A DNA stretch of 64,000 bases, taken from positions 1-64,000 of the forward strand of contig JANRJA010000191.1 of the NCBI GenBank assembly GCA_033764315.1, in the 5' to 3' direction. This DNA is from Oculatellaceae cyanobacterium bins.114. Its GTDB lineage: Bacteria; Cyanobacteriota; Cyanobacteriia; Elainellales; Elainellaceae. Numbering within the stretch: the stretch's first letter is position 1; every line of letters begins with the position of its first letter. The notes below the pieces were generated by a model. That model had not been told where the DNA came from. It saw nothing but the letters and a program-made list of their open reading frames with translations, and did not search any database. The position numbers and the translations under genes were made by a program. Positions 33,346 through 53,929 of this stretch are shown here, in pieces.

Positions 33346-34119
33346 CTACCGGCGATAGGACGGATCATCTCGGTCGAGCAACCGGATCAATGCAGGCCAC
33401 TCTAGTTGCCCTAAATCCTCAATATCTTGCTGCACAGCTGCATGTTCACACACCTCATCGCTTAGAGTAATGAGCGGGGTTCCTGTGGATTGTGCAGTAA
33501 TTTGCACTTCGCAGGCACGATTGAGATAGAACATGAGGATAAACGCTTCTGGAACGGTGCGCCCAGCCGTTAACAGCCCATGATTTCTAAGAATCATCAC
33601 TTTCCTGTCTCCCAAATCGGAGACTAGCCGCTCTCGTTCATCTAGATCCAGGGCAACTCCTTCATAATCGTGATATGCCACTCGGTTATGGAACTGCAAT
33701 GCAAATTGGGAAATGGGCAATAAACCACACTCCAATGCCGATACGGCCATTCCATATTTTGTATGGGTATGTAGCACACAGTGCAGGTCTTCGCGGGCAG
33801 CATGAATGGCACTGTGAATCACAAAGCCAGCCGGATTAACCGCCCACTCACTCTCACCCACAATATTTCCGTAGAGATCAATCTTCACCAAACTTGAGGC
33901 TGTGATTTCGTGAAACATCATGCCATAGGGATTGATCAAGAAGTGATGGTCTGGCCCAGGAATGCGGACTGAAATATGGGTATAAATTAAATCTGACATT
34001 TGAAACTTATCGATTAAACGATAGGCGGCTGCCAGTTGAATGCGCAACTCTCGCTCACTCAGATTTAGATCCGCTTTGGGAGCATAGGATTGCAGGTCAA
34101 AATCAATTTTTTGCACCAT
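33346..34119 (-). CDS. Class II aldolase/adducin family protein
   Basis: LAAAYRL, THISVR, NPAGFVIHSAIH, CVLHTHT, LRNHG. Alternative GTG start at 34137. Confidence 0.9.
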   Translation of the reverse strand: MVQKIDFDLQSYAPKADLNLSERELRIQLAAAYRLIDKFQMSDLIYTHISVRIPGPDHHFLINPYGMMFHEITASSLVKIDLYGNIVGESEWAVNPAGFVIHSAIHAAREDLHCVLHTHTKYGMAVSALECGLLPISQFALQFHNRVAYHDYEGVALDLDERERLVSDLGDRKVMILRNHGLLTAGRTVPEAFILMFYLNRACEVQITAQSTGTPLITLSDEVCEHAAVQQDIEDLGQLEWPALIRLLDRDDPSYRR

Positions 34120-34188
34120 CGGTTTCAATGCCTTCACAACATTAAAGATTACGGTATGGCGTTGCTTAATTCAACAATGTTCCAACAA

Positions 34189-34206
34189 TTAACTGTCAAC
34201 AGTTAA
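34189..34206. promoter_or_regulatory. Palindromic operator TTAACTGTCAACAGTTAA (candidate GntR site 1)
   Basis: Near-perfect palindrome in the divergent aldolase/desaturase promoter; repeated at 37192. Confidence 0.65.
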
Positions 34207-34300
34207 CAGTTCTGTGTTTGGAAACACAGTTCTTGATCTGAAATCCCTGGTAAGACTACTAACGAGAATGGTCATACCATTTATTTATAGGGTGCCTATT

Positions 34301-35338
34301 ATGACAGCCGCATTAAACCAATCATTGAGTGATCTAAATATTTATAGTCGTCGAGACAAGCCGTCGTGGAATGCGATCGCCCTAATCTACATCATTGGCG
34401 GTTATGGCAGCGGTCTTGCCTTAATTCTGCTTCCTTCAGGGTGGTTGAATGGATTGGGAGTATTGTTGCTCTCTCATACGCTGTTTTTGTCGGCTGTAAT
34501 GACTCACGAGTTCATGCACAGCACCATCTTTGCTCAGCAAAAGTGGAACGAACTGGGCGGCAATGTGATGATCTGGATGAATGGGGGGTGTTATGCCCGG
34601 TTTCGAGATTTAACCCGTTGGCACATCGCCCACCATATTGAGCGGGCTGACTTTCCGCCTGTTAACTTGGCTGAGTTTTTGCAAACGTTTCCAGCGGTGA
34701 TTTGTAGGATCATTTATGGGCTGGAGTGGCTCTACTTTCCAGCGATCGCCTTTTTGATGCAGTGGCGTGCCTTAACCCGTCCTTTTTGGAGTGGCAAACG
34801 ACAGGACGAACGATGGCGCACTAGTATGGTTTTGCTGATTCGGGGAAGTTTGTTTGCGCTATTGGCATGGGTGTCTCTCAAGGCATTGTTGCTCTACTTC
34901 TTGTCGTATATCGGCATGCATTTTTTAATGCAAATCATGAATGCCTTTTTCCATACCTACGAGCCGTTTAGTGCAAATATGACGATCACTCAGCGTGATT
35001 GGATCTATGAGCAAGCCAATTCGTTTTCTTGTCTAGTCTCCCAAAATTATGGGTGGCTTAATCTGTTAGTGCTCAACTTTGGCTATCACAACGCCCACCA
35101 CGCGGTGATGCGGTGTCCGTGGCACAGTTTGCCAGAACTCGATCAAGACTTAATTCCTCATCAACCCAATGCCCCATCTCATCGATTTTCAGTGTGGCAA
35201 ATGTTAGGCAACTATCACACCTATCGACTGGCTCGACTACAAGGAGGTCATGGTCAGGTGATCGATGAGGCAGGAAACTACAATCTTGCCAATTTTCGGG
35301 GTGATGTCGGGGTGGGGTTTATGGTTTTACCCGTTTAG
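34301..35338 (+). CDS. Membrane fatty-acid-desaturase-superfamily di-iron enzyme
   Basis: His boxes HEFMH, HIAHH and HNAHH. Confidence 0.88.
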   Translation: MTAALNQSLSDLNIYSRRDKPSWNAIALIYIIGGYGSGLALILLPSGWLNGLGVLLLSHTLFLSAVMTHEFMHSTIFAQQKWNELGGNVMIWMNGGCYARFRDLTRWHIAHHIERADFPPVNLAEFLQTFPAVICRIIYGLEWLYFPAIAFLMQWRALTRPFWSGKRQDERWRTSMVLLIRGSLFALLAWVSLKALLLYFLSYIGMHFLMQIMNAFFHTYEPFSANMTITQRDWIYEQANSFSCLVSQNYGWLNLLVLNFGYHNAHHAVMRCPWHSLPELDQDLIPHQPNAPSHRFSVWQMLGNYHTYRLARLQGGHGQVIDEAGNYNLANFRGDVGVGFMVLPV

Positions 35339-35398
35339 AGGAGATTCCTCAATTCCCCTGCAACAAAGAGACTTCCCTTACTCATTGCTAATTTTTTT

Positions 35399-36022
35399 AT
35401 GCTAGATACAACGATTTCAACGGATACAACTGCGGTCACAATTCCAGCTCGCAGAGGCAAGGCAACCGCTCTCAAGCAGGGGCAAGTGATCCGAGTGGTC
35501 AATACTTACGGGCAACAGGTAGTCGATACCTGGGCATTTAACGCCGATGATCTGAGCGAGTTTATGTCAATGGAGCACACGCGTACCTTTTTAGGACGCA
35601 TTATTCCCAGAGTGGGCGATCGCTTTGTCACCAATCATCGGCGTCCAATTTTGACCGTGGTTGAAGACACCTCACCCGGCATTCATGACACACTACTAGC
35701 TGCATGCGATCGCTATCGCTATGAGCTGTTAGGATTTCCCAATCACGATAACTGCACCGACAATTTAGCCGCTGCACTGGCAGAGTTGGGGTTAACGTCT
35801 GCCCACACCCCCAGCCCGCTGAACTTATTTATGAACATTCCAGTATCACAAACTTACGAAATTTCCTTTTTGCCCCCCGTCAGCAAAGCCGGAGATGCGA
35901 TCGCACTCCGGGCAGAGATGGATTGCATTGTGGCATTTTCATCTTGTCCTCAAGATGTGGTGCCGATCAATGGCGTTGATTGTAAACCTACAGACGCTCA
36001 CTTTATTGTTTCCGATTCATAA
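35399..36022 (+). CDS. DUF1989 / urea-carboxylase-associated family protein
   Basis: GQQVVDTWAFN, HDTLLAAC, HDNC, NLFMNIP, SSCPQD. Confidence 0.9.
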   Translation: MLDTTISTDTTAVTIPARRGKATALKQGQVIRVVNTYGQQVVDTWAFNADDLSEFMSMEHTRTFLGRIIPRVGDRFVTNHRRPILTVVEDTSPGIHDTLLAACDRYRYELLGFPNHDNCTDNLAAALAELGLTSAHTPSPLNLFMNIPVSQTYEISFLPPVSKAGDAIALRAEMDCIVAFSSCPQDVVPINGVDCKPTDAHFIVSDS

Positions 36023-36062
36023 CCTTTGTACACACGCTGTGGAAACATCTTGAATGGGCACC

Positions 36063-36353
36063 CTAAATGGGCAAACAGCAAGGAATAATGATACATCCAC
36101 CCTCGGCTCGTTGTGCCTTCAACGTTTGTGCAGCGGCTTTGCAGGCTTTAAACCGCTGAGGAGCCAGTCGCAGGGCAGTGCTTAAATTGTGATCTGTCAA
36201 AATACGCTTTATATAATCTGAGCAAGATTCGTCTCCGTGCAACACTCCGTGAGGGCAAGAAAACCCTTTCCGAGGTGAAATATGAGTTCGGTAGACATTG
36301 AGAGAGGCGATCGCGGCTTGGGTAGCAAACGATTCAAATGTATTGGCAGTCAT
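36063..36353 (-). CDS. yidD: YidD-like membrane protein insertion efficiency factor
   Basis: YRTHISPRKGFSC...SCSDY...RFKAC motif. Confidence 0.75.
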   Translation of the reverse strand: MTANTFESFATQAAIASLNVYRTHISPRKGFSCPHGVLHGDESCSDYIKRILTDHNLSTALRLAPQRFKACKAAAQTLKAQRAEGGCIIIPCCLPI

Positions 36354-36444
36354 GAGTTAAAGCAGGGGTAGAAACCACACCTCAACTTGTATCTCAAACC
36401 ACACCTGAAGGACTCTATCAAGAGGTTTAATTAAAGGGAATGGC

Positions 36445-37167
36445 TCATTCATTGCTCATCATTTGTAGATGACGGGTAAATACCTTGCCATCGGCGTTGT
36501 GCTGCCGTGCCGTTTGTTCCGCTAAGGAACCATCCCCCGAACAGATCGACTCAACCAACTGCTCGTGCTCTGCCGTAATGACAGATAAGTCAGGAAACAG
36601 GGTATCGGTGTAGGCAATACAAAGGTGAATTTGTTGCTCAATTAATTTGTATTGAGCTTGTAATCGACTGTGATCCGATAACTGCACAATCGTCTTATGG
36701 AGTTGAAAATCTGCATCCGTAATCTTCTTTAAATCTCCACCCTGTACGGCTTGGGTCAAGGCAGCTAATGCATGTTTCAGCATCTCGATCTTTTCATCTG
36801 TCAATGTCTCCGCAACTAAGCGAGATGCAAGACTCTCTAACGCCGTTCGTAGTGTATGCAATTCCCAAATGTCATTCAAACTTAGGGTTGTAACTGTCCA
36901 CCCTTTATGCAGGACTTGTGTGATCAACCCTTCATAAGTCAGTTGTTGCAATGCCGATCGAATCGTGCCTCGGCTTAATTTAAATTGATCGGCTAAGTTG
37001 GTTTCTTTAAGGCGAAAGCCAGGTGGATAATGTCCTTTGAGAATTTGCTCGCGCAGCACATCAGCAACCTGACAATCTAAGCTTTGCGGAACGATGCTTT
37101 GCGGAACAATGCTTGGTGGAACGATACCTGGTGAAACGGTATTTAAGCTTGGTTTTTGATCTTTCAT
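36445..37167 (-). CDS. GntR-family (FadR/FCD) transcriptional regulator
   Basis: HTH LREQILKGHYPPGFRLKETNLADQFKLSRGTIRSAL; FCD motifs DFQLH and EHEQL; 3 x 15-bp repeat at 37081-37125. Confidence 0.92.
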   Translation of the reverse strand: MKDQKPSLNTVSPGIVPPSIVPQSIVPQSLDCQVADVLREQILKGHYPPGFRLKETNLADQFKLSRGTIRSALQQLTYEGLITQVLHKGWTVTTLSLNDIWELHTLRTALESLASRLVAETLTDEKIEMLKHALAALTQAVQGGDLKKITDADFQLHKTIVQLSDHSRLQAQYKLIEQQIHLCIAYTDTLFPDLSVITAEHEQLVESICSGDGSLAEQTARQHNADGKVFTRHLQMMSNE

Positions 37168-37191
37168 AAATTTACAATATTCAGTTAACCG

Positions 37192-37209
37192 TTAACTGTC
37201 AACAGTTTA
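37192..37209. promoter_or_regulatory. Palindromic operator TTAACTGTCAACAGTTTA (candidate GntR site 2)
   Basis: In the gntR / dehydrogenase divergent promoter; 17 of 18 positions identical to site 1. Confidence 0.65.
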
Positions 37210-37286
37210 CATTTTTGTGCTCATTAACACAGTTATTCAAATAACCCCCTTGTTAAATAAATGAAAAATTGGATGTAGGGTGACCT

Positions 37287-38231
37287 GTGAATAAGCCTGC
37301 GATTCACGTTGTTGTCGATGAGCCAGATATGTATGACTACAAAGCTCTTCTGGCTGAACTTGCACCGGAGGTAACACTGACCCTGTGTGAAGACCCAGCG
37401 GCTCCTCCTGCGGCGATCGCAGATGCCGAAATCTTGCTGACTTGGCGACCACATCCCCATGTGTTGCAAGGAATGCCCAAACTAAAGTGGATTCATTCCA
37501 CGGGTGCCGGAGTAGAAGCCATTTTGCAATCAGACTATTTTTCCCCCACGGTGACATTAACCCGCACCGGAAAAATGGCAGGTCGTTTGATGGCGGAATA
37601 TGTGCTCGGTTTCATTTTAGCAACCACCTTTCGCCTGCCATTTGTGGCAGCTAATCAGCAACACCATCGGTGGCAACCATTTAAGATTCATCCAGTACAA
37701 GGCAAATCTTGCACCATTTTGGGAATGGGAGAAATTGGGCAGGAAATCGCTGCCCTGTGTCAGGCGATCGCCCTCAATGTAACGGGTATCAATCGCACTG
37801 GAAGCTCAACTATAGAGAGCATTCCCACCTATTCTATAGAATTCCTCGATCAGGTATTACCTGTCACTGACATTTTAGTGGTGGTGGTTCCCCTGACTCC
37901 TGAAACTGAGGGAATGCTGGATGCCCGTCGATTAAACTTGCTGCCCGATCAAGCACTAATTATCAACGTCAGTCGTGGGCCTGTCATCGTAGAAGCCGAT
38001 TTAATTCAAGTCCTGAAAGAGCGATCGCTCACGGCGGTGTTGGATGTGTTTAATCAAGAACCACTTCCCCCTGATTCTCCTTTTTGGGACATGGACAACG
38101 TAATTGTTACACCGCATATTGCGGGTCCCTATGATCCAGAGTTTTGTACACAAGTATTTCTCGACAATTTGGAACGCTATCGGTTAGGACAAAAGATGAA
38201 TTACGTCGTTGATTATGCCAAAGGCTATTGA
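37287..38231 (+). CDS. D-2-hydroxyacid dehydrogenase (GhrA-like)
   Basis: GAGVE, GMGEIG, PLTPET, NVSRG, DVFNQEPLP, TPHIAG. Confidence 0.9.
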   Translation: MNKPAIHVVVDEPDMYDYKALLAELAPEVTLTLCEDPAAPPAAIADAEILLTWRPHPHVLQGMPKLKWIHSTGAGVEAILQSDYFSPTVTLTRTGKMAGRLMAEYVLGFILATTFRLPFVAANQQHHRWQPFKIHPVQGKSCTILGMGEIGQEIAALCQAIALNVTGINRTGSSTIESIPTYSIEFLDQVLPVTDILVVVVPLTPETEGMLDARRLNLLPDQALIINVSRGPVIVEADLIQVLKERSLTAVLDVFNQEPLPPDSPFWDMDNVIVTPHIAGPYDPEFCTQVFLDNLERYRLGQKMNYVVDYAKGY

Positions 38232-38273
38232 GTTTTGATTGGCTAAGACCCACTCTCTACAGGTAAATCTGCT

Positions 38274-39422
38274 ATGTTGACGCAAGAGAAAATACAACCC
38301 TCGGGTACAACTGTCGAAGCGTTTTTACAGAACTGGCGGCCTCAACGCATTGAAACAGCTTCTTCGTTTCCAGCACAGATGTATACGTCAGAATATGTGT
38401 ATCAACTGGAACAAGAACGAGTGTTTGGTAAACGCTGGCTTTATGTTGGAGATATTAGTCAACTTCCAGAGCCAGGTTCCTATTTCACCCTTGAGATTGC
38501 TCAACAACCCCTCTTGATCGTTAAAAATTTAGATGGACAACTGCGGGGATTTTTTAATGTCTGCCCCCACCGGGCAGGTCCTATTGCCCTTGATGCAGGT
38601 CAGTGTCATCGGTTTACGTGCCTCTATCACGCCTGGACATTTGACCTAAACGGTGAGTTAAAAGCCATGCCCCACATGGCCGATGCAGAAGCCCTCAACC
38701 CCGGCGAGTTTGGGCTTAAACCCATTCAAGTAGATACATGGGGTCCGTTTATTTTTATCAATCTTGACCCCCATGCAGAACCGCTAACTGAACAGTTGAG
38801 TCACTTAATTGAGCACTTTGATCGCTTTAATTTTTCTAAGCTTGCAAAGGTTAAAAGAATTGATTACGAAGCTAATGCAAACTGGAAATTGTACGTTGAG
38901 AATAGCTCTGAGAGTTATCACGTTGCAATGGTTCACCCCTCTCTGGATTTGTTTAAAGCACTCGATCGCTTTGAAGCAGATGTTCAACAACACTACTACA
39001 CCGAGTATTTTCCCTTCTTAGAAAACAGTGATGAGTTGCAAAAAGGATTTGCTCCGGGCCTATATATTGACGGGCTAAATGAGTGGGAAATGCAAGGAAC
39101 TTCAGTGACTGTGTTGTATCCCAATTTGATCCTGGTTACGTCTCCTAACTTTGTGCTGGCACGGATGGTAAATCCTCAAGGATTATCTAAAACCCATGTG
39201 CGGTTTGAGTGGTTTGTACCAAACACAGACGTAGCAAAATCTGATGCTAATGTCGCAGCAGTTGTCCAAATTTATGATCAGGTCGTTCGTGAGGATTTAG
39301 TCATGCTCGATCACGTTCAACAACGGGTGCGATCGCTCAGTTATACCCCCGGTCGGCTTTCTCCAGAGCTAGAAGTAGGCGTACATCGCTTTCAACATGC
39401 TTTGATGGAGTACATTCGCTAA
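38274..39422 (+). CDS. Rieske non-heme iron oxygenase alpha subunit (choline/carnitine/stachydrine monooxygenase-like)
   Basis: CPH...CLYH Rieske motif; NWKLYVENSSESYHVAMVH iron site with bridging Glu; REDLVM. Confidence 0.88.
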   Translation: MLTQEKIQPSGTTVEAFLQNWRPQRIETASSFPAQMYTSEYVYQLEQERVFGKRWLYVGDISQLPEPGSYFTLEIAQQPLLIVKNLDGQLRGFFNVCPHRAGPIALDAGQCHRFTCLYHAWTFDLNGELKAMPHMADAEALNPGEFGLKPIQVDTWGPFIFINLDPHAEPLTEQLSHLIEHFDRFNFSKLAKVKRIDYEANANWKLYVENSSESYHVAMVHPSLDLFKALDRFEADVQQHYYTEYFPFLENSDELQKGFAPGLYIDGLNEWEMQGTSVTVLYPNLILVTSPNFVLARMVNPQGLSKTHVRFEWFVPNTDVAKSDANVAAVVQIYDQVVREDLVMLDHVQQRVRSLSYTPGRLSPELEVGVHRFQHALMEYIR

Positions 39423-39638
39423 GCGAGCAAGACGGTTTGTATCAATAAACACCGAACTAAGATAGTATTCCTGATTTAAGTATCTTCATTACTCACATTC
39501 AAATTTGCTTCTCTGTCTAAGTTTCAGGATACTAAGTGTTGAATAACTTGGATCGGCGATCGCCAACACCCTGTATCCAATAACACGCTACTTGAATAAG
39601 TACCCATATTCATCTGTATCTCAAGGAGTCTTACCCTA

Positions 39639-40511
39639 ATGATTAGTCGTCTGCGAGGAATGCGCTGGCTTCCTAAAACCCTCAGTCTTGTTTTTCTGAT
39701 GCTGTTGACGTGCTTTGTTGCCGTCGCTTGTAGTTCTTCTTCCACTTCAGATAGCGGATTTCCAGCGGAACTCACCTTTGCCACTGAAGATGATTACCCA
39801 CCCTTTGACTTCCAACAAGATGGCAAGCACGTAGGGTACAACCAGGACATGCTTGATCTCGTTGCTGCTAATGCACCCTTCACCATCAAACAGGAAATTA
39901 TTCCCTGGCAGGGCGTTTTAGCAGGTATTGCTTCTGGCAAATATGCCGCCAGTAATGCAGTGGCATCCGTGTTAGAAGAGCGTCTGGATGCGGTCAATTT
40001 CACTATGCCCACCACCGAATTAACCAACTATTTCTTGAAGCGTAAAGGCGATGACTCGATTAAAGCGATCGCCGACTTTGCAGGTAAGAACATCGGTGTA
40101 CAGCAAGGTGGAGCAACAGCCGTCATGGTGGATGAAATCATTCGCCCTGAGTTGGCAAAAACTGGGCAAGACGTGGGCAATGTCGCAGAATATGGAGCGT
40201 TTGCAGAAGCCTATCAAGATCTAGAAAACAAACGGATTGATATTGTGATCAACAACGTTGTAGCGTTGTCACAACTCGTTAAAGAGAAAGGCGATATTTA
40301 CGAAATTGGGACTCAGATTGGTCCAACCATTTACGCTGGATGGACTGTTAGTAAGAACAATCCGCAATTGCTGGAGTTTCTTAATACAGAACTCGGTAAG
40401 CTCAAAGCCAGCGGCAAGATGAAGGAACTACAAGAGAAATGGTTAGGTATTGCATTTGACCTCCCCGATGAACCTCAACTGCCTGGAGGCGTACCCATTC
40501 CCGCATCATAA
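39639..40511 (+). CDS. Polar amino acid ABC transporter substrate-binding lipoprotein
   Basis: Lipobox VAVAC; EDDYPPFDF; SBP_bac_3-type motifs. Confidence 0.9.
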   Translation: MISRLRGMRWLPKTLSLVFLMLLTCFVAVACSSSSTSDSGFPAELTFATEDDYPPFDFQQDGKHVGYNQDMLDLVAANAPFTIKQEIIPWQGVLAGIASGKYAASNAVASVLEERLDAVNFTMPTTELTNYFLKRKGDDSIKAIADFAGKNIGVQQGGATAVMVDEIIRPELAKTGQDVGNVAEYGAFAEAYQDLENKRIDIVINNVVALSQLVKEKGDIYEIGTQIGPTIYAGWTVSKNNPQLLEFLNTELGKLKASGKMKELQEKWLGIAFDLPDEPQLPGGVPIPAS

Positions 40512-40587
40512 CTTGTCCTATTGCCTCCCCTTCTCCTCAATCAGGAGGAGGGGTTGGGTCATCAGGAGATTTTTTTCCTAATCAGGT

Positions 40588-41241: not shown

Positions 41242-41243
41242 CC

Positions 41244-42684: not shown

Positions 42685-42891
42685 GTATCACCTTAGTTTC
42701 AAAATTTAAATCTAGTCCTTCTTAAGAGGGTATTGCTGAATACAGGTATGATTCACGGACGTTGATCTTGACAGCAGAGGCGTTTCACAAAACATCCTGA
42801 CGAAATTCATACATTCGATCAATAACCTCTAAAAGAGCGACAGATCTAGTTTAGAAATTTGCTTAGTTTTACAGTGTTAGGAGTTAGGGTT

Positions 42892-43524: not shown

Positions 43525-43538
43525 CACCTACCTGTTAC

Positions 43539-43596
43539 AGACGCGATGAATCGCGTCTCTTCTACACCCTACACAGACGTGATGAATCGCGTCTCT
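43539..43596. repeat. Two copies of the palindrome AGACG(C/T)GATGAATCGCGTCT, 36 bp apart
   Basis: Copies at 43539-43560 and 43575-43596; related sequence near 27831-27849. Confidence 0.75.
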
Positions 43597-44586: not shown

Positions 44587-44596
44587 AGAGAGATAC

Positions 44597-46302: not shown

Positions 46303-46313
46303 GATGTACCTAA

Positions 46314-47135
46314 TTACCTTTTTTGATTGAGCAGCAGTGGAATCAGTAAAAACTCCACGCCAATTAACAACAACGCAGAAATCGCAAACACAATAGTTCC
46401 GATCGCATTTAAAGATGGACTCAGGTTTGCACCGAGAAATGTGTAAATTGCAACGGGTAAAGTTTGTTCAAAACCAGAGACAAACCAGGCAATCACAAAC
46501 TCATCAAACGAAAAAGTGAACGCCAGCAGCCACGCTCCAGCAATACCTGGAATTGCCCAGGGTAAGACAATGCGATATAACGCCTGCCATTCTGTTGCCC
46601 CTAGATTCCAAGCTGCTGCTTCCAGATCACGGGGCATCTGCGCCAATCGTAAAGTAATCAGGGCGATCGCCGTTGGAATCAGAATCACCACATGGGTAAT
46701 CAAAACGCTGTATAACTGTCCTTGCAGATTGACGCGAGATAACAAACCGAGAAAAGCAACTCCCAGAATTAAAGGCGGTACCAGAATCGGAATCAGAAAT
46801 AATAGCGAAAGCAAACTCTTGCCAGGAAAGGTAAAGCGATTCAGCACATAGGCCGCAAAAAAGCCCATCACGGTGGCGATCGTTGCTGCTAGAGGAGACA
46901 CGATCAAGCTATTTTTTAGCGACAGCAGCAAGCGTCCATCGCTAAATAACTCTTGATACCAACTCCAGGTCCAACCTGTCCAGGGAATGGTGGCGAAGCG
47001 AGAATTTTCAAAGGAAAAGGCAATCAGAGTGAAGATGGGCAGCAATAGAAATACAAACACCAACCCCAGATAAATCCAGCTTGCGATCGCCAATCCATAG
47101 TCAGCGGGTTGTTTTGCCTGAGTCGTCATGGTCAC
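46314..47135 (-). CDS. PotC-like ABC permease
   Basis: LEAAAWNLGA, FTFSFDEF, TLPVAIY. Confidence 0.9.
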   Translation of the reverse strand: MTMTTQAKQPADYGLAIASWIYLGLVFVFLLLPIFTLIAFSFENSRFATIPWTGWTWSWYQELFSDGRLLLSLKNSLIVSPLAATIATVMGFFAAYVLNRFTFPGKSLLSLLFLIPILVPPLILGVAFLGLLSRVNLQGQLYSVLITHVVILIPTAIALITLRLAQMPRDLEAAAWNLGATEWQALYRIVLPWAIPGIAGAWLLAFTFSFDEFVIAWFVSGFEQTLPVAIYTFLGANLSPSLNAIGTIVFAISALLLIGVEFLLIPLLLNQKR

Positions 47136-48052
47136 TGCTCCGATTCTGACAGTTTAAATCCGGCAATCAAAATTATCATCATAATCAAAATCAAAATCGT
47201 TGCCAGTGCAGACGTGCGGGGCAGGTTGGTGGATGCCGCATATTCATTCAGAATCATGCTGGAAAAGAGGGGGAATTTTCCCAGGATAGATTGCCCCGTC
47301 CCTCCTCCCAAAATAATGCCTGATAACACATCTCCTAAACTGATAATCAAACCAAAGATGGCACTGTAGATGATCCCCAATCGACTGAGCGGCAGAATCA
47401 CTCGACAAAAAGTTTGCCATCGGGTTGCCCCCAAATTACGAGCAGCTTCGATCAAACTGCGATCGCTATTTCGCAACACCAAATACAGGATCAAGATCAT
47501 AATTGGCGCGAGATAGTGCAGCAGTCCTAAGCGAGTGCCCCATTGTGTAAAAATAATCTGCAAGGGCGTATCGATCCAGTGCAGTTTTAAGAGCAATGTG
47601 TTCAGCAATCCATTCGTGTTAATGATCGTTTGCCATGCGTAGAGTCGTAGAATATAACTCGTCCAAAAAGGGGCGATCGCTAACACCAAAAAAAATCGTT
47701 GATAGCGTTCTGGAACAACAAACGCCAACACCATCGCGAATGGATAACAGACTAAAATTCCCAGTGCTGTTGTTGTCACTGCGACCCAAAAGGATTGCAG
47801 AATGGCAAAGGCATAGCGCGATCGCGTCAAGAACTGACTAAAGATATCACTATAGTTTTCAAGGGAGAAGCCGGGGACAGCGCGATAATTTTCCGTTGTC
47901 CAAAAGCCAATCCAGATCAGGAACAACAACGGCAACAAAAAAAATACCGCATCGTAAATCACTGCCGGAGCCAGACCAATATATTTCAACAGGCTGGCTT
48001 GACTAGGCAGCTTCAGGGGTGGCGATCGCGTTTCAGAAATTGGGTTGGTCAT
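47132..48052 (-). CDS. PotB-like ABC permease
   Basis: PFWTSYILR, LIEAARNLGA; 4-bp overlaps with both neighbours. Confidence 0.9.
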   Translation of the reverse strand: MTNPISETRSPPLKLPSQASLLKYIGLAPAVIYDAVFFLLPLLFLIWIGFWTTENYRAVPGFSLENYSDIFSQFLTRSRYAFAILQSFWVAVTTTALGILVCYPFAMVLAFVVPERYQRFFLVLAIAPFWTSYILRLYAWQTIINTNGLLNTLLLKLHWIDTPLQIIFTQWGTRLGLLHYLAPIMILILYLVLRNSDRSLIEAARNLGATRWQTFCRVILPLSRLGIIYSAIFGLIISLGDVLSGIILGGGTGQSILGKFPLFSSMILNEYAASTNLPRTSALATILILIMMIILIAGFKLSESEQ

Positions 48053-49242
48053 GACAGTTGCCCACTCATCCGTTCACCCAACAATCCGCTATCCTCCGTC
48101 CTCCAGGACAAATTCACCTGACTGTTAATCGGAATTTGCAAACTGTGATCAAAGGATTCCTGTCGAATCACTTTAATTTCATACCCCGTCTCGGTTTCCA
48201 GGACATAGATCACCTGAGAACCCATAAACTCCCGTCCTCGCAAGGTGGCTTTAAGGCTGTTTTCTGTAGTTGATGGAGACTGAGTCAGGGCAATTCGATC
48301 GGCAGGGATAATCACTGTGACGCGATCGCCCACTTGATGAGATAACTCCTGTATAGGGGTTTCAAAAATTCCTTGCGGGCAACGAACCGTCACCGTCTGG
48401 GAACTGACTCGCATCACATCCCCATCTAACAAATTGTTGTTGCCCACAAATTCTGCAACAAAATGAGTTGCCGGACGGGTATAAATGTCGGCGGGAGACC
48501 CCACCTGCTCAATCTTGCCCCGATTCATCACCACCACCCGATCCGCCATCGAAAACGCTTCATTTTGGTTATGGGTGACGTAAATGAACGAGATGCCCAA
48601 TGCCTGCTGCAAACGTTTTAATTCCCCTTGCATCCTCACCCGTAGATGCGGATCGAGGGCACTCATCGGCTCATCCAGCAGCAGAATTTTGGGTTCCGTG
48701 ATCAGAGCGCGGGCGATCGCCACCCGCTGTTTTTGCCCACCGCTGATTTGGCTGATCCGCCGATCAAGCAACCCATCCAGATGCAAAAGGGAGGCGATCG
48801 CCTGAATCCGTTGCTGCACCTCAGCTTTGCGGTGAGGCACCAGCGTTAAGCCAAAGGCAATATTCTGGCGCACGTTCAGGTGGGGAAATAGGGCAAAACT
48901 TTGCCACACCATTGGCGTATTGCGTTGATGCACCGGCAAATGGGTAATATCCTTACCCCGCAAACGAATTTCCCCAGTCGTAGTGCCTTCCAACCCTGCC
49001 ATGACCCGTAGCAGCGTGGTTTTGCCACAGCCACTGGGGCCCATAATGGCGACAAATTCTCCGGCGGTGACACTGAGATTAATCTCATGCAACACCGACA
49101 GCGCACCATATTGCTTAGAAATATGGCGCAATTCTAGATCATGTGCAGGCAGGGCTGAAGCAGGAGATGGCAGGGGCTGCTCTATAGCCGCGATCGCCTG
49201 ACCAGCCCCCGCCTGTTGTGGGTGAGAGTCAAAGAGCGGCAT
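48049..49242 (-). CDS. PotA-like ABC ATP-binding protein
   Basis: [23 protein letters not shown]-terminal TOBE-like region. Confidence 0.92.
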
Positions 49243-50453
49243 CAGCTTGTCTTAAATTCGTTATAAAGGTCTTGCCAAACTTTTTCGGGTTGATTGACAG
49301 GCAATTGACGGGCACGACTGCGCTCAATCTGAACTTCAACCACGAGTTTGTCAGGAGTGTCGGGATCAGGCACATAGCCCAATAGTTGCTTCTCTGCATC
49401 GCTCATGAAATCTACCGCTTTCAAGTTGGGCGCAATGCCTTTATAGGCTTTTGCATTGGCTAGACGGGCTTGCGTTTCGGGCAGAGACATATACTTGACC
49501 CATTCCAACGCCAATGCTTTGTTCTGGCTAGCCGAACAGACGGTAGCCCCCTCACTCCAACGAATTGAGCCTTCTTTAGGCACCACTGCGGCAAAGTTGT
49601 CATGTCCATCGGCGATCGCATTTTGAATCAACCAGTCACCCACTGGCCCCGCAATGATACTTTCGTTGATAAAGGCGTTCGTGATGTCTTGAATATTGGG
49701 AGTAATTAACGCTACGTTAGGCTTTACCTTAATCAGCCAATCCTTCACCTGCTGCAACTGGTCGTCGGTCAGTTCGTAGGGATTGGGATTATCCGGGAAC
49801 AGAGCAAGGCTGGCGTTACCCATGTTGGGCAGATACCAGTCAAAAAATGCCACCTTGCCTTTCAAGTCTTCCCGCGTCAAAAACTCCCAACTGGTGACTT
49901 CTTCTGGCTTAATATACTTGGTGTTGAAAGCAATGCCATAGTTGCCGTAGCGCGTGCCCACCGCCATGACGTTGCCGTCTTGAATGAAGCCGGGAAAGTC
50001 TTGATAAGCGGGAATGAAGTTTTTAATTTCGGGGAAGTCGTCGGCGTTGAGAGCCTCAACTGCCCCCAGTTCCACCAGTTTCTTCACGTATTCGCCATCA
50101 GAAATAATGCCGTCAAATGTACCGGGGGGCGATTGGTTGAAGAATTGCAGCATTTGTTCGCCGCCCACGTAGGTCTTGAACTCGACCTTGGCTCCTGTCT
50201 GCTCCTGAAACTTGCCGATCACCTCTGGTTCGTCATAGCCCGACCAGGAGAGAATCCGTAATGTCCCGCCACTCGCCGTAGGGCTAGCAGGAGCCTCTGC
50301 CGCAGGACTGCTCTCGGCGGGCGTCGGTTGAGAGGTGCATCCAATCAAGCGGGTGGTCGCTGCTGCCAGAGATGCGGTTGAGGCAAACTGAATAAATTTG
50401 CGTCGGCTAAGAGAACTGATAAATTTTGTCCGTCGTTGATTCATAAGACTCAC
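49242..50453 (-). CDS. PotD-like ABC substrate-binding protein with twin-arginine lipoprotein signal
   Basis: SRRKFIQ...LIGC; LSWSGY; PKEGSIRW. Confidence 0.88.
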   Translation of the reverse strand: MSLMNQRRTKFISSLSRRKFIQFASTASLAAATTRLIGCTSQPTPAESSPAAEAPASPTASGGTLRILSWSGYDEPEVIGKFQEQTGAKVEFKTYVGGEQMLQFFNQSPPGTFDGIISDGEYVKKLVELGAVEALNADDFPEIKNFIPAYQDFPGFIQDGNVMAVGTRYGNYGIAFNTKYIKPEEVTSWEFLTREDLKGKVAFFDWYLPNMGNASLALFPDNPNPYELTDDQLQQVKDWLIKVKPNVALITPNIQDITNAFINESIIAGPVGDWLIQNAIADGHDNFAAVVPKEGSIRWSEGATVCSASQNKALALEWVKYMSLPETQARLANAKAYKGIAPNLKAVDFMSDAEKQLLGYVPDPDTPDKLVVEVQIERSRARQLPVNQPEKVWQDLYNEFKTS

Positions 50454-50470
50454 TCAATCACTCAATAAAC

Positions 50471-50539
50471 AGTAGGTGGGCAATGCCCACAATAGATTCA
50501 ATCCTTAACTTGTGAATTGGGTGGGCAATACCCACCTAC
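50471..50539. repeat. REP-like inverted pair GTAGGTGGGCAATGCCCAC
   Basis: GTAGGTGGG at 50471 and CCCACCTAC ending at 50539, each arm with an internal hairpin. Confidence 0.7.
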
Positions 50540-50563
50540 AAGACTCTACGAAATTTTATCGGG

Positions 50564-52090
50564 CTATAGGGAACCGCTAAAGCGATTGATTGCCAAAGGC
50601 TGAGCCATTGCGGTTTGATACATTTTTTCCATTGCTGGACGTAATTTTTCGGCGTATTGAGTAATCTCGGCAAAACGCGATCGATACTCTGGCAAATACT
50701 CCTTGAGTTCAGCTAATACTTCGTGTTCGTTGATAGTTAGAATCTGTGCATCTTTTACCACCTGTTGACCGTTAATAAACACACTGCGAATCGACTGCCC
50801 ATGTTCTGCATAAACGAGATGGATTGGCAATCGATTACGAGGCGTGAAGCTAAGCGAGTTCAAATCGTAGAGAACAAAATCAGCTTTCATGCCAGGGGCG
50901 ATCGCCCCAATTTCTTGTTCTAACATTGCAGATTTAGCACCGCCATAAGTTGCCCATTTCAGCACATCCGCCGCTCTGGGATAGTGCTCATAGCGATGAT
51001 CTGTGACGGAATGCAACATACCTGCTGTCTTAATCACATCAAACATGTTGAAAGAGTCATTAGAACTCATCCCATCAGACCCCAGTGCAATATTTACCCC
51101 TGCTGCCTTCAGTTCCCGAATAGGGGCAATGCCACTACACAGCCTGAAATTGCTAACTACGTTATGAATCACAGTTGCGCCTGCTTCGGCAATCAGGTCA
51201 ATGTCTCCAGGCGTTAACCAAACCCCGTGGGCGATCGCCGTGCGGTGGGTGAGAATGCCATGCCGTTTAGCGTAGCTCACCACGGTTTCACCATACAACT
51301 CTGGTCCAGTTACTGCCTGAGTTTTGGTTTCCACTAAGTGGGTGTGAATGGGTATGTTGTATTCCTCAGATAATGCGCTAATGCGGTGCATTAGCTCAGG
51401 GGTGACCCGTTGTGAGGCAGAAGGAGCCAACACCAAGGTGACTAATCCCTCTCGTCCGTGCCATTTGCTGTGCAATCGGCGGAACAAATCGACCCAATCA
51501 TCATCAGACATCCCTTGCGCTGACTCAAATTCTTGCTTCACGTCATTGGGCAAGATCTCATCTAGATAGGGAATGGTGTGATGCAGCGGTTTATTAATGC
51601 AATGGAGCGATAAGCTCACTCGCAACCCCAGATCGACGTAGGCTTGAGCCACCGCATCAAAAATTTCTGGTGTGGTGTAAGGCAATTCCAGTAAGTCATC
51701 CTGGATCGTAGTGGCTCCAGACTTGACCATCTCCATTGCCCCAATCAGGGTTCTCAGATAACACAAACGGGGACTCAGATGCTTTGTCACTCTTGGAGAG
51801 TAACTGTATAACATCCACAGTTCCAAAGGCAGTGCCTCATAGCTGCCCTTGTCCAAAATTTCCATTGAGTGGGCATGGGCATTGACAAATCCTGGAATGA
51901 GTAATTGATCGGTTGCATCAATCACTAACATCCCAGATTCAACTAAGTCGATTTCAGGGGCAACCTGAGTGATGCGATCGCCCTCAACCAACACATCCGC
52001 ACAACAGGGTTCCAGATCAAGAGAGCGATCGGAATTGAGAGTAAAGGGCAAAATCGTTGCGTTCTTAATCAGAAGACTGACGTGAGACAT
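50564..52090 (-). CDS. Amidohydrolase (MTA/SAH-deaminase / AtzA-TrzA-like)
   Basis: PGFVNAHAH, HTHLVET, AHGVW, GSDG, PGMKAD. Confidence 0.9.
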   Translation of the reverse strand: MSHVSLLIKNATILPFTLNSDRSLDLEPCCADVLVEGDRITQVAPEIDLVESGMLVIDATDQLLIPGFVNAHAHSMEILDKGSYEALPLELWMLYSYSPRVTKHLSPRLCYLRTLIGAMEMVKSGATTIQDDLLELPYTTPEIFDAVAQAYVDLGLRVSLSLHCINKPLHHTIPYLDEILPNDVKQEFESAQGMSDDDWVDLFRRLHSKWHGREGLVTLVLAPSASQRVTPELMHRISALSEEYNIPIHTHLVETKTQAVTGPELYGETVVSYAKRHGILTHRTAIAHGVWLTPGDIDLIAEAGATVIHNVVSNFRLCSGIAPIRELKAAGVNIALGSDGMSSNDSFNMFDVIKTAGMLHSVTDHRYEHYPRAADVLKWATYGGAKSAMLEQEIGAIAPGMKADFVLYDLNSLSFTPRNRLPIHLVYAEHGQSIRSVFINGQQVVKDAQILTINEHEVLAELKEYLPEYRSRFAEITQYAEKLRPAMEKMYQTAMAQPLAINRFSGSL

Positions 52091-52128
52091 AGATGTTGTC
52101 TCAATTGATGATTCAAAAGGTTGGATTA

Positions 52129-52170
52129 AGCATAAATTCAGTCATTCTTAGAAAATGTCATACAAGATAC
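52129..52170 (-). promoter_or_regulatory. NtcA-type promoter for the amidohydrolase-ABC-creatininase operon
   Basis: Minus strand GTA-TCTTGTAT-GAC (52170-52157), 22 nt, then TATGCT (52134-52129); one mismatch to GTAN8TAC. Confidence 0.6.
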
Positions 52171-52957
52171 ATATCGATTTTTTCTCTGCTATATCCACAA
52201 ACACATCTTAAATCAATTGCTTAATTGACAAGTCAGATTCGATTTAATTTACGGTTTGCTTCATTTTTTGCTACATTATTGTTTTAATCACAATCCAAGC
52301 AATTCACTGTAACCGATTCATTAAGTGCTTTGCTAGTACATATCTTTTACATACTTAACGAACATCAAATCAAGTTTAGATGAACGTATATTGATACTCG
52401 ACTTTCAATAACTTCAGTACGACCAGAGCTGCATCACTGCTTAGGCCAGGAATAGGGAACGATCGTTCAAAAAAAATAAGAAGTTCATCATGAGTACCAA
52501 AGCAAACATCAACCACAATTAATATCTCGTTCTAAAGCATGTTGAAGAATTAGCTTGAATCACACCCATAATTTTACTGAAAGATGAGTTGAAATAGACT
52601 TGAATCTGCGAATATCGTAATCTCAAAGAAAGGAATTGCGATTGTATTAAAGATTACTTTTTCTTCCAATTAAATTCTGGTAATCCTATTTGAGACAAGA
52701 ATAGAACTTAAAAAGTAATATACAGCAACAGTCAAAACAGTTGATTCAAGAAGGGGGGCTTTGCTCAAGCCAAAGGGTGTAAAACCCTTGCACCCCTCCT
52801 AATCAATGCTTCAGTTGCCATAGCTTGTTGCTTTTCTACGGAGTGGTTGAGAGAGTGTGACGTGAGTGTTTTTTGCACTCCAATTTGCCGTTCTTGCCCT
52901 TTCTAGTAACACCTCTATTCTTGAATAGACCTTCTTAATAAGACAGAGATATTTATT

Positions 52958-53929
52958 GTGCAAGATCCAGTTCTTCTAAATGACTGGCACATTGTTGCTA
53001 GAGCCGAGGATGTTCCTCCAATGCACCTTTTGCAGGTTTATCTTCTAGGTCATCGATTGGTGTTATGGCGATGTGAGGATCAAATCAAGGTATGGCAAGA
53101 TCAGTGCCCCCATCGGGGTATTCCCCTTTCATCAGGGTGGGTTCAAGATCAAAACACATTGGTCTGTCCTTATCACGGCATGGTATTTGATGGAGAAGGG
53201 CATTGTCTTCATGTTCCCGCTAGTCCGGCGATCGCTACTTTCCCCAAAACTTCTCAGGTTCGTTCCTTTTTAGCCAAAGAACAATATGGGTATATCTGGG
53301 TGACTTTGGGAAAACCAGTACACGATATTCCCTACTTTGCAGAATGGGATCAACCGGGTTTCTTTCACTTCTTATGCGGTGCTTATACCATCAACACGAG
53401 TGCCCCGCGAGTTATTGAAAACTTTACTGATGTCGCTCACCTTCCCTTTGTGCATGAAGGGTTGTTGGGCGATCGCGCTCATCCTGAAATTTCTGAATAT
53501 CAATTAACGACAGATCACAATGGACTGACAGCACACAATATTGAGTTTTATCAACCTGATCCAGAAGGAACAGGCGAAGCAAAGTCAGTGTCCTATATCT
53601 ACAAAATTTTGCGTCCGTTAATTGCTTATTTCTGCAAAGGATCGGATGAATTTCAGTTCTCCATTTTTCTAGCTGTCACACCCGTTGAAGAACTAAAAAG
53701 TATTGCCTGGTTGGGTGTTTCTAGAAACTATGCTCCCGATGCTAAAGCAGAAGATTTACGAGCGTTTCAAGATCATTTAATGTCGCAAGATATTCCCATG
53801 TTAGAGTCTCAGCATCCACAACGATTGCCACTTGATCTGCAAGCAGAATTTCACTTTCCTGCTGACCAGTTGGCGATCGCTTATCGTAAATGGTTAAAAC
53901 AACTGGGATTAGTATTTGGGACTTGCTAG
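52958..53929 (+). CDS. Rieske oxygenase, VanA/NdmA/SxtT-GxtA-like
   Basis: CPHRG...CPYHG; ENFTDVAHLPFVHEGLLGD; C-terminal AYRKWLKQLGLVFGTC. Confidence 0.88.
   Translation: MQDPVLLNDWHIVARAEDVPPMHLLQVYLLGHRLVLWRCEDQIKVWQDQCPHRGIPLSSGWVQDQNTLVCPYHGMVFDGEGHCLHVPASPAIATFPKTSQVRSFLAKEQYGYIWVTLGKPVHDIPYFAEWDQPGFFHFLCGAYTINTSAPRVIENFTDVAHLPFVHEGLLGDRAHPEISEYQLTTDHNGLTAHNIEFYQPDPEGTGEAKSVSYIYKILRPLIAYFCKGSDEFQFSIFLAVTPVEELKSIAWLGVSRNYAPDAKAEDLRAFQDHLMSQDIPMLESQHPQRLPLDLQAEFHFPADQLAIAYRKWLKQLGLVFGTC

Follow-up and report, generated by a model that had tools for sequence, protein, structure and literature searches.

The 64,000-nucleotide stretch analysed here (the window: positions 1 to 64,000 of contig JANRJA010000191.1, or C96, of Oculatellaceae cyanobacterium bins.114, GenBank assembly GCA_033764315.1, which comprises 6.64 Mb in 251 contigs and is 90.7% complete) carries about 20 kb of catabolic genes between positions 33346 and 53929. 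On balance, we favour the view that these genes form an island for nitrogen scavenging with two units, each inherited and controlled on its own, and that creatinine or a close analogue is the likeliest substrate of the second. Unit A (33346–44170) encodes a GntR regulator, an amino-acid-type importer, a Rieske oxygenase (Rieske 1), two DUF1989 proteins (DUF1989a and DUF1989b) and an HD-domain protein; unit B (45505–53929) encodes a creatininase, a second importer, an amidohydrolase and another Rieske oxygenase (Rieske 2). A sequence-only reading had taken all of this as one undescribed pathway for nitrogen from creatinine or other guanidino or N-methylated compounds. The genes it listed were all recovered as intact open reading frames (ORFs) where it had placed them, using the ORF list together with Pfam and NCBIfam profiles, and its broader view of an uncharacterised catabolic region for nitrogen scavenging is supported. 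The single pathway was not supported, since its halves occur apart in relatives and differ in their regulators.

Sixty related genomes (labels beginning with G) were searched, the surroundings of the matches were fetched, and the loci were compared by tblastn with the window proteins as queries. A creatininase orthologue (52–57% identity, E ≤ 3e-84) was found in 14 of the 60, the sole same-genus genome not being among them, and an orthologue of DUF1989b (73–86% identity) in four (G002, G007, G013 and G023). Both occur in just two genomes, G007, where units A and B lie on separate contigs, and G013, whose contigs are too short to decide; 12 of the 14 creatininase genomes have no DUF1989b orthologue, and G002 and G023 carry unit A orthologues without a creatininase orthologue. 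Within each unit, the genes do keep company. Unit A recurs as HD, aldolase and GntR genes opposite those for Rieske 1, the SBP3 transporter and DUF1989b (G002), as an aldolase gene opposite dehydrogenase, transporter and DUF1989b genes (G007), and on two short contigs as aldolase, desaturase-like, DUF1989a and GntR genes and as transporter and DUF1989b genes (G023). Unit B recurs as creatininase with Rieske 2 (G007, G013, G016, G020, G031) and as creatininase with a PotDABC-like importer and two amidohydrolase paralogues (G005, G010, G020). No fetched locus except the window has the two units side by side. Because they occur independently in relatives and have different regulators, with a putative GntR operator at unit A and an AsnC remnant and an NtcA-type promoter at unit B, we treat them as two separate units. 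Weak cross-links exist, in that the unit A transporter type, the desaturase-like family and the CntA-like Rieske family adjoin creatininase genes in other cyanobacteria.

The relatives' loci share a conserved core around the creatininase. In a recurring order, seen with Pfam and NCBIfam profiles on seven loci and by tblastn, genes for an agmatinase-family ureohydrolase, the creatininase and an AsnC/Lrp regulator lie on one strand, opposite the Rieske gene. The ureohydrolase is present in 10 of the 60 relatives (87–100% identical among themselves), no more than 300 bp from the creatininase gene in eight of those ten, and without a creatininase in G015 and G027; its nearest relatives of solved structure are 3-guanidinopropionase (4e-81) and guanidinobutyrase. 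In these loci, the creatininase/Rieske pair is joined by a guanidino-acid ureohydrolase and by an NtcA-type promoter that is conserved, which strengthens the case for creatinine, creatine or another guanidino compound. A survey with an alignment of six Rieske 2 orthologues gave 80 loci (labels beginning with L) from species-representative genomes, some of which are the same stretches as G loci, so that the two series of counts are not additive. Among loci with a Rieske protein at least 56% identical, 8 of 17 hold a creatininase, against 1 of 63 with a more distant one, where it stands beside a Rieske fragment; three of the 17 have the PotDABC-like importer and amidohydrolase, and in two (L046 and L050) a transporter 53–69% identical to that of unit A adjoins the creatininase and Rieske genes. 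A quick maximum-likelihood tree of 56 sequences, from which SxtT and GxtA are absent, the pattern scan having fetched no sxt genes, and the Heteroscytonema locus L087 was removed by length and coverage filters, places the window protein inside an 18-member clade (Shimodaira–Hasegawa-like approximate likelihood-ratio test, SH-aLRT, 100), in which the window and L057 form deep branches. All Rieske genes linked to creatininase, ureohydrolase, AsnC, amidohydrolase or PotD genes sit in this clade.

Beyond the core, the loci are more varied. L046 encodes a CodB-type cytosine permease (449.6 bits, cut-off 326) and a CDA-type deaminase; the CodB-type family includes the transporter for creatinine in Corynebacterium. 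In G012 and G059, the creatininase gene is accompanied by genes of the desaturase-like family, isochorismatase-family (PF00857) genes and one for an NMT1-type binding protein. In L057, an AsnC gene lies opposite a desaturase-like gene and genes for a Bmp-type importer, the Rieske protein, a deacetylase, a 2-oxoglutarate oxygenase and an amidohydrolase that is only distantly related. The picture of these combinations is that of a modular toolkit, not of one fixed pathway. An intact AsnC gene (62% identical to the relatives' unit B regulator) also stands opposite a desaturase-like gene elsewhere in the source genome (C35:2689–13219), near genes for an NMT1-type ATP-binding cassette (ABC) importer, a second desaturase-like protein and a polysaccharide-deacetylase-family protein. 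A creatininase-family paralogue, 28–29% identical to the window protein, is encoded between two CntA/GbcA-like Rieske genes at L027 16262–19663 (G012) and L013 11619–14882 (G014); the G012 paralogue locus adjoins a glutamine-synthetase-domain gene, and contig C49 of the source genome has a similar Rieske gene beside such a gene.

In NtcA-activated promoters, GTAN8TAC is followed some 22 nt further downstream by a TAN3T box. A site at 52614–52657 on the minus strand has this architecture, with TACGAT at 24 nt, and is aimed at the amidohydrolase, importer and creatininase genes as their putative promoter. The window has 12 copies of GTAN8TAC where 5.6 are expected, a count reached by 1 of 100 shuffles. 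In relatives, the motif lies upstream of the creatininase gene in six of nine core loci, five of them with TAN3T 23 nt downstream, against a background of 0.089 per kb in the fetched loci; the nine loci are orthologous, and the count measures conservation rather than independent trials. The NtcA-type promoter listed in the sequence-only reading is thus confirmed in part: the site at 52614 is well placed, whereas another at 42730 has no conserved counterpart in G002, G007 or G023. As a promoter of DUF1989b we rejected the latter, which by eye has no TAN3T at the right plus-strand spacing and whose only full match points the opposite way. Another full NtcA-type motif (31366–31407, minus strand) lies upstream of the Sll0783-family nitrogen-starvation gene in a Nit1C-type cluster at 26489–31407, which also encodes AIR-synthase-like, GNAT and radical SAM proteins and a Nit6803-family nitrilase (574.5 bits, cut-off 502.6). 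Between the nitrilase and Sll0783-family genes is a long hairpin-like element (30654–30803) with weak plant-miRNA-like Rfam matches (best E 0.00085, far under the gathering score), the only matches at E ≤ 1; over the whole window, no Rfam family reached its gathering threshold and no riboswitch was found.

The unit B creatininase (45505–46302, minus strand) is a good member of its family, as had been proposed, with 327.8 bits to TIGR04448 (cut-off 235). Its alignment with 1j2t, the Pseudomonas enzyme (2e-72), runs over the full length and keeps EQHG...D, NGH(F for Y)EN, YWDF, W..EH...ETS and KS.GGNHFPGT, which we take to be the metal-binding and catalytic motifs of that enzyme. Eleven bp away is the last gene of a PotC/PotB/PotA/PotD-like ABC importer (46314–50453, minus strand), whose orthologues in G005, G010 and G020 are 73–81% identical and in the same order; its binding protein is a distant relative of PotD and PotF. 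The COG0402-type amidohydrolase (50564–52090, minus strand) belongs to the TRZ/ATZ, 8-oxoguanine-deaminase and cytosine-deaminase group, which also holds guanine deaminases and the triazine hydrolases, and is nearest to 8-oxoguanine deaminase and TRZ/ATZ enzymes, far under every named NCBIfam cut-off (best 250 vs 609); relatives carry two paralogues, with 72–75% and 63% identity. On the plus strand, Rieske 2 (52958–53929) is a VanA-type oxygenase (Pfam Rieske and VanA_C) related to SxtT/GxtA and NdmA/B; its residues C50, H52, C70, H73, H161, H166 and D278 do not vary across six orthologues. Its database matches at E ≤ 1e-30 number more than 1,300 proteins, with no Sxt name among the 120 listed. 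The accessible part of a study of SxtT names seven residues in contact with a saxitoxin analogue, Arg204, Gln226, Ser230, Asp239, Met255, Tyr273 and Thr276 (PMC7293229); mapped by hand, the aligned residues of Rieske 2 are Asp201, Ala223, Lys227, Ile236, Leu252, Phe270 and Leu274. With none of these seven contacts kept, as far as that part of the source defines them, a saxitoxin function for Rieske 2 is ruled out.

Compared with its relatives, unit B of the window is, as judged from its genes, a divergent, rewired or partly eroded version of the core. Its importer and amidohydrolase are 72–81% identical to those of G005, G010 and G020, and it has one amidohydrolase where relatives have two. 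The AsnC/Lrp gene is a remnant (52385–52567, minus strand) that matches at 46% identity over 61 residues (111–171) with two stop codons and lies inside an 868-bp AT-rich gap (52091–52957). The earlier observation that the classical downstream genes are missing from the window was borne out and extends to the assembly, at its 90.7% completeness, for creatinase, urea carboxylase and allophanate hydrolase: PF01321 (Creatinase_N) had no match there, where a control search matched 13 of 14 genomes, and nothing exceeded the cut-offs of TIGR02712 (urea carboxylase) or TIGR02713 (allophanate hydrolase). Urease is present. Contig C16 encodes a SoxB-like protein (482 bits, cut-off 529) in a row of PurU-like, SoxB-like, SoxA-like (1016 amino acids) and GATase/GXGXG/glutamate-synthase-domain genes (C16:2012–11698), a row that we take to be N-methylglutamate-pathway-like, for methylamine use, and presumably unusual for a cyanobacterium. 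At C251:15796–19382, a gene for a 399-amino-acid arginase-family protein has HypA-like and HypB/CobW-like genes and one for an NMT1-type binding protein after it, presumably the layout of the Synechocystis cluster for GdmH, a Ni-dependent guanidine hydrolase.

Gene identities, conserved gene sets, the operator, the promoter motif and the HD fold are results of the analysis, whereas all substrates and all reactions, for both units, we infer. Unit B would be transcribed from the NtcA-type promoter, and its PotABCD-like transporter would import a cyclic guanidine or amidine of small size, with creatinine or a close analogue as the likeliest candidate. The creatininase would open the ring of this compound to yield a guanidino acid (creatine), and the COG0402-type amidohydrolase probably releases amidine or exocyclic nitrogen as ammonia and may deaminate creatinine or a guanidino intermediate. 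Rieske 2, with host ferredoxin, would either remove an N-methyl group as formaldehyde, as NdmA/B do, or hydroxylate the carbon beside a guanidino nitrogen. In relatives, the GpuA/GbuA-like ureohydrolase encoded beside the creatininase could free urea, from which urease would yield ammonia. Two schemes may describe their core: either the Rieske enzyme demethylates creatine to guanidinoacetate, which the ureohydrolase splits into glycine and urea, or the ureohydrolase acts on creatine itself, as an arginase-fold analogue of creatinase, and the Rieske enzyme subsequently demethylates sarcosine. The second scheme would explain loci that have lost the Rieske gene and kept the creatininase/ureohydrolase pair, as two of the three nitrogens would already be recovered as urea. 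Metformin hydrolase, according to the available part of its description, offers a precedent for the release of a secondary amine from a disubstituted guanidine by an arginase-family enzyme (PMC11271267). In a third scheme, that of the sequence-only reading, hydroxylation beside the guanidino nitrogen would release glyoxylate together with methylguanidine or guanidine, and its products could feed the GdmH-like cluster (C251), the N-methylglutamate-pathway-like cluster (C16) and urease. Taken together, scavenging of creatinine or creatine by a non-classical route is plausible.

For unit A, the regulatory signal is of a different kind. The exact 16-mer TTAACTGTCAACAGTT, a palindrome around AACTGT/ACAGTT, with AACTGTCAACAGTT as the putative binding target of GntR, occurs twice in the window, at 34189–34204 in the divergent promoter of the aldolase and desaturase-like genes and at 37192–37207 between the GntR gene and the dehydrogenase operon. 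With up to three mismatches, 7 matches were found in the window vs 0.56 expected, most of them overlapping the two exact sites, and a 14-mer core has exact copies in the whole assembly at these two places only. In the equivalent intergenic regions of relatives, the core is kept exactly in G002 and G023 and with two mismatches in G007. An operator of such form is what the GntR family leads one to expect, and because it marks each of the two divergent promoters and is retained in G002, G023 and G007, we read 33346–44170 as a single, presumably GntR-controlled regulon. An operator-like site with two mismatches at 50760–50775, within the amidohydrolase coding sequence, was set aside as probably due to chance.

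The genes of this putative regulon begin with one for a class II aldolase/adducin-family protein (33346–34137, minus strand; NF005451 subfamily, 387.6 bits), whose orthologues in G002, G007 and G023 (77–85% identity) also lie beside unit A genes. Divergent from it are genes for a membrane-bound fatty-acid-desaturase-like di-iron protein (Pfam; 34214–35338, plus strand, likely start ATG 34301), with three His boxes in its translation and paralogues of 44–52% identity beside AsnC and creatininase genes in G012, G014, G059 and L057, and for the Tdm-domain-like DUF1989a (35399–36022, plus strand), with 133.5 bits to the model region of trimethylamine N-oxide (TMAO) demethylase and an orthologue in G023 only (92%) among the loci examined. 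A YidD-family ORF (36063–36353, minus strand; 75.7 bits, cut-off 40) lies between DUF1989a and the regulator; in G023, the gap there is about 157 bp and has no such ORF. The GntR/FCD regulator (36445–37167, minus strand) has orthologues in G002 (72%) and G023 (83%). It is followed by a D-isomer 2-hydroxyacid dehydrogenase gene (37287–38231, plus strand; orthologue in G007, 68%), for which the earlier label of GhrA-like has to be taken loosely: the protein is a D-2-hydroxyacid dehydrogenase, scoring 129.6 bits against the GhrA cut-off of 403 and best, at 176.2 against 400, to a haloarchaeal D-2-hydroxyacid dehydrogenase. Further along the plus strand are genes for the alpha subunit of Rieske 1 (38274–39422; CntA/Stc2/GbcA type; orthologue in G002, 65%), for a polar-amino-acid-type ABC importer consisting of an SBP3 protein, two permeases and an ATPase (39639–42684; orthologues in G002, G007 and G023), the binding protein of which is nearest to glutamine- and arginine-type binding proteins, and for DUF1989b (42859–43524), a lone CgdB/UAAP2-like protein with 281.6 bits to the UAAP2 model against a cut-off of 284.7. 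DUF1989b is 43–58% identical to proteins of the tandem UAAP pairs of 11 relatives and about 50% to plasmid UAAP2 proteins, and a plasmid search with it returned ordinary paired UAAP2 genes. The two DUF1989 genes are 6.8 kb apart; their products are about 33% identical and both are closer to UAAP2 or Tdm than to UAAP1. A RidA-family gene (Pfam, NCBIfam; 44176–44586, minus strand) possibly also belongs to unit A: in G013, RidA and 2-hydroxyacid dehydrogenase genes follow DUF1989b as in the window, a recurrence that hints at imine and 2-oxo-acid intermediates and is compatible with glyoxylate or an imine. Between the units, a TauE/SafE-family membrane protein gene (Pfam; 44711–45424, plus strand) is probably a bystander; no TauE gene was seen beside either unit in the relatives' loci, except for a 35% match in L054.

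The HD-domain protein of unit A (43613–44170, plus strand; orthologue in G002, 82%) has the PhnZ/TmpB fold. The earlier label of PhnZ-like is borne out by this fold and not by the sequence, which matches PhnZ at 7.7e-5 and scores below the curated cut-offs for PhnZ (TIGR03276, 34.6 vs 214.6) and TmpB (NF049941, 32.2 vs 300). In an AlphaFold model built on 31 homologues (predicted local distance difference test, pLDDT, 93.6), all ten best PDB matches are PhnZ or TmpB, with probability 1.00 and template modelling (TM) scores of 0.65–0.69 by query, MIOX following at a TM of about 0.5. H56, H80, D81, H91, H114 and D153 are invariant in the 31 homologues; six ligands in the pattern H, HD, H, H, D are characteristic of di-iron HD oxygenases, and four of HD hydrolases. 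The family counts at least 7,982 proteins at E ≤ 1e-10, with no substrate assigned in the names returned. On a Pseudomonas plasmid, a 50% identical homologue is encoded directly after a TauD/TfdA dioxygenase and before a choline-type binding protein, choline dehydrogenase and aldehyde dehydrogenase, and another homologue precedes a sterol-desaturase-family protein; a search of the ESM Atlas confirmed the HD and FA_desaturase families only.

Unit A would thus be a GntR-repressed regulon whose importer takes up an amino-acid-like, N-methylated or guanidino compound. Hydroxylation or demethylation by the CntA-type Rieske 1 may come first and cleavage by the PhnZ/TmpB-type HD di-iron oxygenase second, the lone CgdB-like DUF1989b could add a hydrolytic deimination or demethylation, and RidA, the 2-hydroxyacid dehydrogenase and the class II aldolase-family enzyme would handle 2-oxo and imine products.

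Several observations weigh against the reading favoured here. A look-up of sequencing runs that hold the stretch listed no RNA run and a single DNA run, with 0.05 of the words. The window creatininase is 49–56% identical to 15 cyanobacterial orthologues that are 65–100% (median 76%) identical to one another, and Rieske 2 is a deep branch of its clade; because of this divergence, the substrate of the window's unit B may differ from that of its relatives. No ureohydrolase orthologue is present in the assembly, the best match being 34–35% identical, and since this enzyme is missing, none is identified for the step after creatine in the window. L057, the nearest relative of the window Rieske gene, has an importer of the nucleoside type (Bmp) at its side, a hint at N-heterocycles and not at creatinine. 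In L047 and L049, an AsnC gene lies opposite importer, amidohydrolase and Rieske genes with no creatininase in the fetched flanks, and G005 and G036 combine creatininase and ureohydrolase without a Rieske protein of the clade, so that the roles of unit B are not tightly coupled; in G010, the Rieske gene is a 109-residue fragment. Full GTAN8TAC-N21–24-TAN3T sites are not enriched in the window (4 vs 2.3 expected in shuffles), and the Rieske 2 pocket, sharing none of the contacts given in the accessible part of the SxtT source, gives no positive clue. The substrate of unit A, finally, is a guess from family membership: probably amino-acid-like, N-methylated or guanidino.

Some of these points would fit a unit B that acts on a different cyclic amidine or N-heterocycle, such as a methylated purine, a pterin or a hydantoin-type compound, with the amidohydrolase as deaminase, Rieske 2 as an NdmA/B-like N-demethylase and the creatininase-family protein as ring amidase. 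In its favour, 8-oxoguanine deaminase and TRZ/ATZ enzymes come closest to the amidohydrolase, NdmA/B rank second among the solved relatives of Rieske 2, the importer at L057 is of the Bmp/PnrA type, L046 has the cytosine permease and CDA-type deaminase, and the window creatininase is a divergent outlier. However, that protein scores well over its equivalog cut-off (327.8 vs 235) and aligns end to end with the Pseudomonas enzyme, keeping EQHG...D, GH(F/Y)EN and EH...ETS, and its tightly linked partner in relatives, a guanidino-acid hydrolase relative, fits an open-chain guanidino acid as product; we consider this alternative unlikely. If unit B of the window were a remnant in decay, no longer sufficient for a complete pathway, this would account for an AsnC gene reduced to 61 residues with two stops, the missing ureohydrolase, the single amidohydrolase in place of two and the 868-bp AT-rich gap, and erosion is seen in relatives too (the Rieske fragment of G010; a ureohydrolase match of 196/325 residues in G036). 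Yet the eight remaining unit B genes are all full-length open frames, the Rieske-cluster and iron-ligand residues and the creatininase motifs are kept, and the NtcA-type promoter is in place, which makes decay, to our minds, quite improbable.

The pathway of the sequence-only reading would run over the full 20 kb, from creatinine to creatine and, by an oxygenase, to methylguanidine and glyoxylate, with demethylation and deimination by DUF1989 proteins and removal of glyoxylate by the dehydrogenase. In its favour, units A and B are adjacent, the window has no ureohydrolase and would need another route, a unit A-like transporter (53–69%) lies beside creatininase and Rieske genes in L046 and L050, creatininase genes or paralogues in G012, G014 and G059 have desaturase-like and CntA-like Rieske genes as neighbours, RidA and 2-hydroxyacid dehydrogenase genes recur beside DUF1989b, and the GdmH-like and N-methylglutamate-pathway-like clusters of the genome could take guanidine or methylamine. 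The unit A orthologues of G002 and G023 nevertheless come without a creatininase orthologue, 12 of 14 creatininase genomes have no DUF1989b orthologue, G007 has the units on different contigs, their regulators differ, and the window is the only examined locus in which they adjoin. We accordingly give a single pathway a small chance, and a functional link between the two units after the creatine step is conceivable but unsupported. For unit A taken by itself, use of a phosphonate (or sulfonate) could be imagined, with the HD oxygenase cleaving a C–P bond after hydroxylation, as in PhnY*/PhnZ and TmpA/TmpB: its fold matches only PhnZ and TmpB well, among NCBIfam models the GntR protein comes closest to the Burkholderia PhnR, which is associated with phosphonates (120.6 bits, cut-off 271.5), and the TauE gene adjoins. 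Set against this, the HD protein falls far under the PhnZ (34.6 vs 214.6) and TmpB (32.2 vs 300) cut-offs, the transporter is of the polar-amino-acid type rather than PhnD or PhnS, no other phn genes were seen in the region with Pfam and NCBIfam, and we know of no role of DUF1989, RidA or aldolase proteins in phosphonate use. Such a function is very unlikely.

Creatinine and creatine are abundant animal waste, and their breakdown by bacteria is thought to proceed via creatinase or creatinine deaminase. The conserved and apparently NtcA-controlled cluster of creatininase, arginase-fold hydrolase relative and Rieske oxygenase suggests a third route, which would be an unconsidered nitrogen source for mat- and crust-forming cyanobacteria. 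Candidates for new substrates would be the Rieske clade, the only solved relatives of which are saxitoxin hydroxylases and caffeine demethylases, the lone DUF1989 proteins and the very large PhnZ-like HD family. The region also carries a lesson for annotation, in that these 20 kb should be read as two regulons, not one operon-like pathway. The enzyme superfamilies and the general theme of scavenging guanidino and N-methyl nitrogen are established; the combinations, namely the NtcA-linked ureohydrolase/creatininase/AsnC/Rieske core, the lone CgdB-like protein and the pair of Rieske and PhnZ-fold proteins, are uncharacterised. We found no publication joining creatininase and a Rieske oxygenase in a literature search that was incomplete and had subscription journals mostly outside its reach; the titles and abstracts covered likewise included none on cyanobacteria that use creatinine, the same incompleteness leaving room for prior publication. 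Should the adjacency of the units be functional after all, which we hold to be improbable, the island might be a complete route from creatinine to ammonia without ureohydrolase: unit B would open and demethylate creatinine, unit A would import or receive creatine or guanidinoacetate, the lone DUF1989 protein would deiminate the guanidino acid without ATP-dependent carboxylation, and the HD di-iron oxygenase would cleave a C–C bond of a hydroxylated, non-phosphonate intermediate. This would mean a new DUF1989 reaction, the first carboxylate-type substrate for the PhnZ/TmpB branch, and a Rieske clade of creatine, creatinine or sarcosine N-demethylases.

Among the surroundings of the island, genes for a chlorite-dismutase-family protein (183 amino acids, 37.3 bits) and a 235-amino-acid ORF without a family match lie at 31921–33299, between the Nit1C-type cluster and unit A. 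Just to the right of unit B is a gene for a GAF-LuxR regulator (54075–55502, minus strand), and a 1460-amino-acid ORF at 59600–63982 (minus strand) has no Pfam match.

Unit B can be compared with two characterised creatinine routes. With the classical pathway of Pseudomonas putida (creatininase, creatinase, sarcosine oxidase), it has the creatininase in common and, in relatives, urea as the likely nitrogen carrier, with urease present; it differs in that relatives put an arginase-fold relative of guanidino-acid hydrolases in the place of creatinase, the window having neither, and in that a Rieske oxygenase occupies the place of the flavin sarcosine oxidase that would remove the methyl group. 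With the creatinine deaminase route (cytosine/creatinine deaminase, N-methylhydantoinase, N-carbamoylsarcosine amidase), it shares the COG0402-type amidohydrolase, and PF00857 genes adjoin the creatininase gene in G012 and G059; in the accessible part of PMC7848895, the candidate for creatinine deaminase is COG0402 and N-carbamoylsarcosine amidase is assigned to PF00857. The ATP-dependent N-methylhydantoinase of that route was not seen in the annotated loci. Rieske 2 has the alpha-only VanA-type architecture of SxtT/GxtA and NdmA/NdmB, keeps the CPHR and CPYH motifs and the His/His/Asp iron ligands, and matches GxtA (262 bits), SxtT (254) and NdmA (122) over its full length; these enzymes act on nitrogen-rich rings, and the setting of Rieske 2 is catabolic, not biosynthetic.

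The unit A proteins, likewise, resemble known enzymes in part. The nearest solved or modelled relatives of Rieske 1 are CntA (1e-38), Stc2 (1.7e-34) and GbcA (173.9 bits to the model, far under the family cut-off of 670), and no gene for a dedicated reductase of the CntB/GbcB type was seen in the region with Pfam and NCBIfam. DUF1989b falls just short of the UAAP2/CgdB equivalog cut-off, at 281.6 bits, and shares about 50–58% identity with UAAP2 proteins; in contrast to CgdAB, neither DUF1989 protein of the window is paired with a UAAP1 partner, tandem pairs existing in 11 relatives, and the urea/guanidine carboxylase and allophanate hydrolase of the guanidine carboxylase pathway are missing from the assembly. 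DUF1989a matches the DUF1989 region of Tdm (133.5 bits), and the window DUF1989 proteins differ from Tdm in not being fused to an aminomethyltransferase domain. Elsewhere in the genome (C84:10430–12286), a Tdm-like fusion of DUF1989 and aminomethyltransferase domains, at 618 amino acids shorter than Tdm, is encoded beside a MOSC protein, and fusion-like open frames of about 580–670 amino acids are matched in many relatives. Guanidine carboxylase operons also include, as reported in the available part of PMC12508155, the methylguanidine-demethylating MgdH/MgdL, a 2-oxoglutarate dioxygenase and a lyase, with guanidine riboswitches. Within the limits of that source, the proposed window chemistry has in common with it that an oxygenase would begin the demethylation of a guanidino compound whose nitrogen is then assimilated, and differs in that the window oxygenases are Rieske proteins and no riboswitch was found. 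Finally, the HD protein is 22–24% identical to PhnZ and TmpB; its partner is a Rieske oxygenase and not a 2-oxoglutarate dioxygenase, and a phosphonate transporter is missing, but it resembles the PhnY*/PhnZ and TmpA/TmpB systems in the order of hydroxylase and then HD oxygenase, being encoded together with an oxygenase that could supply its hydroxylated substrate.

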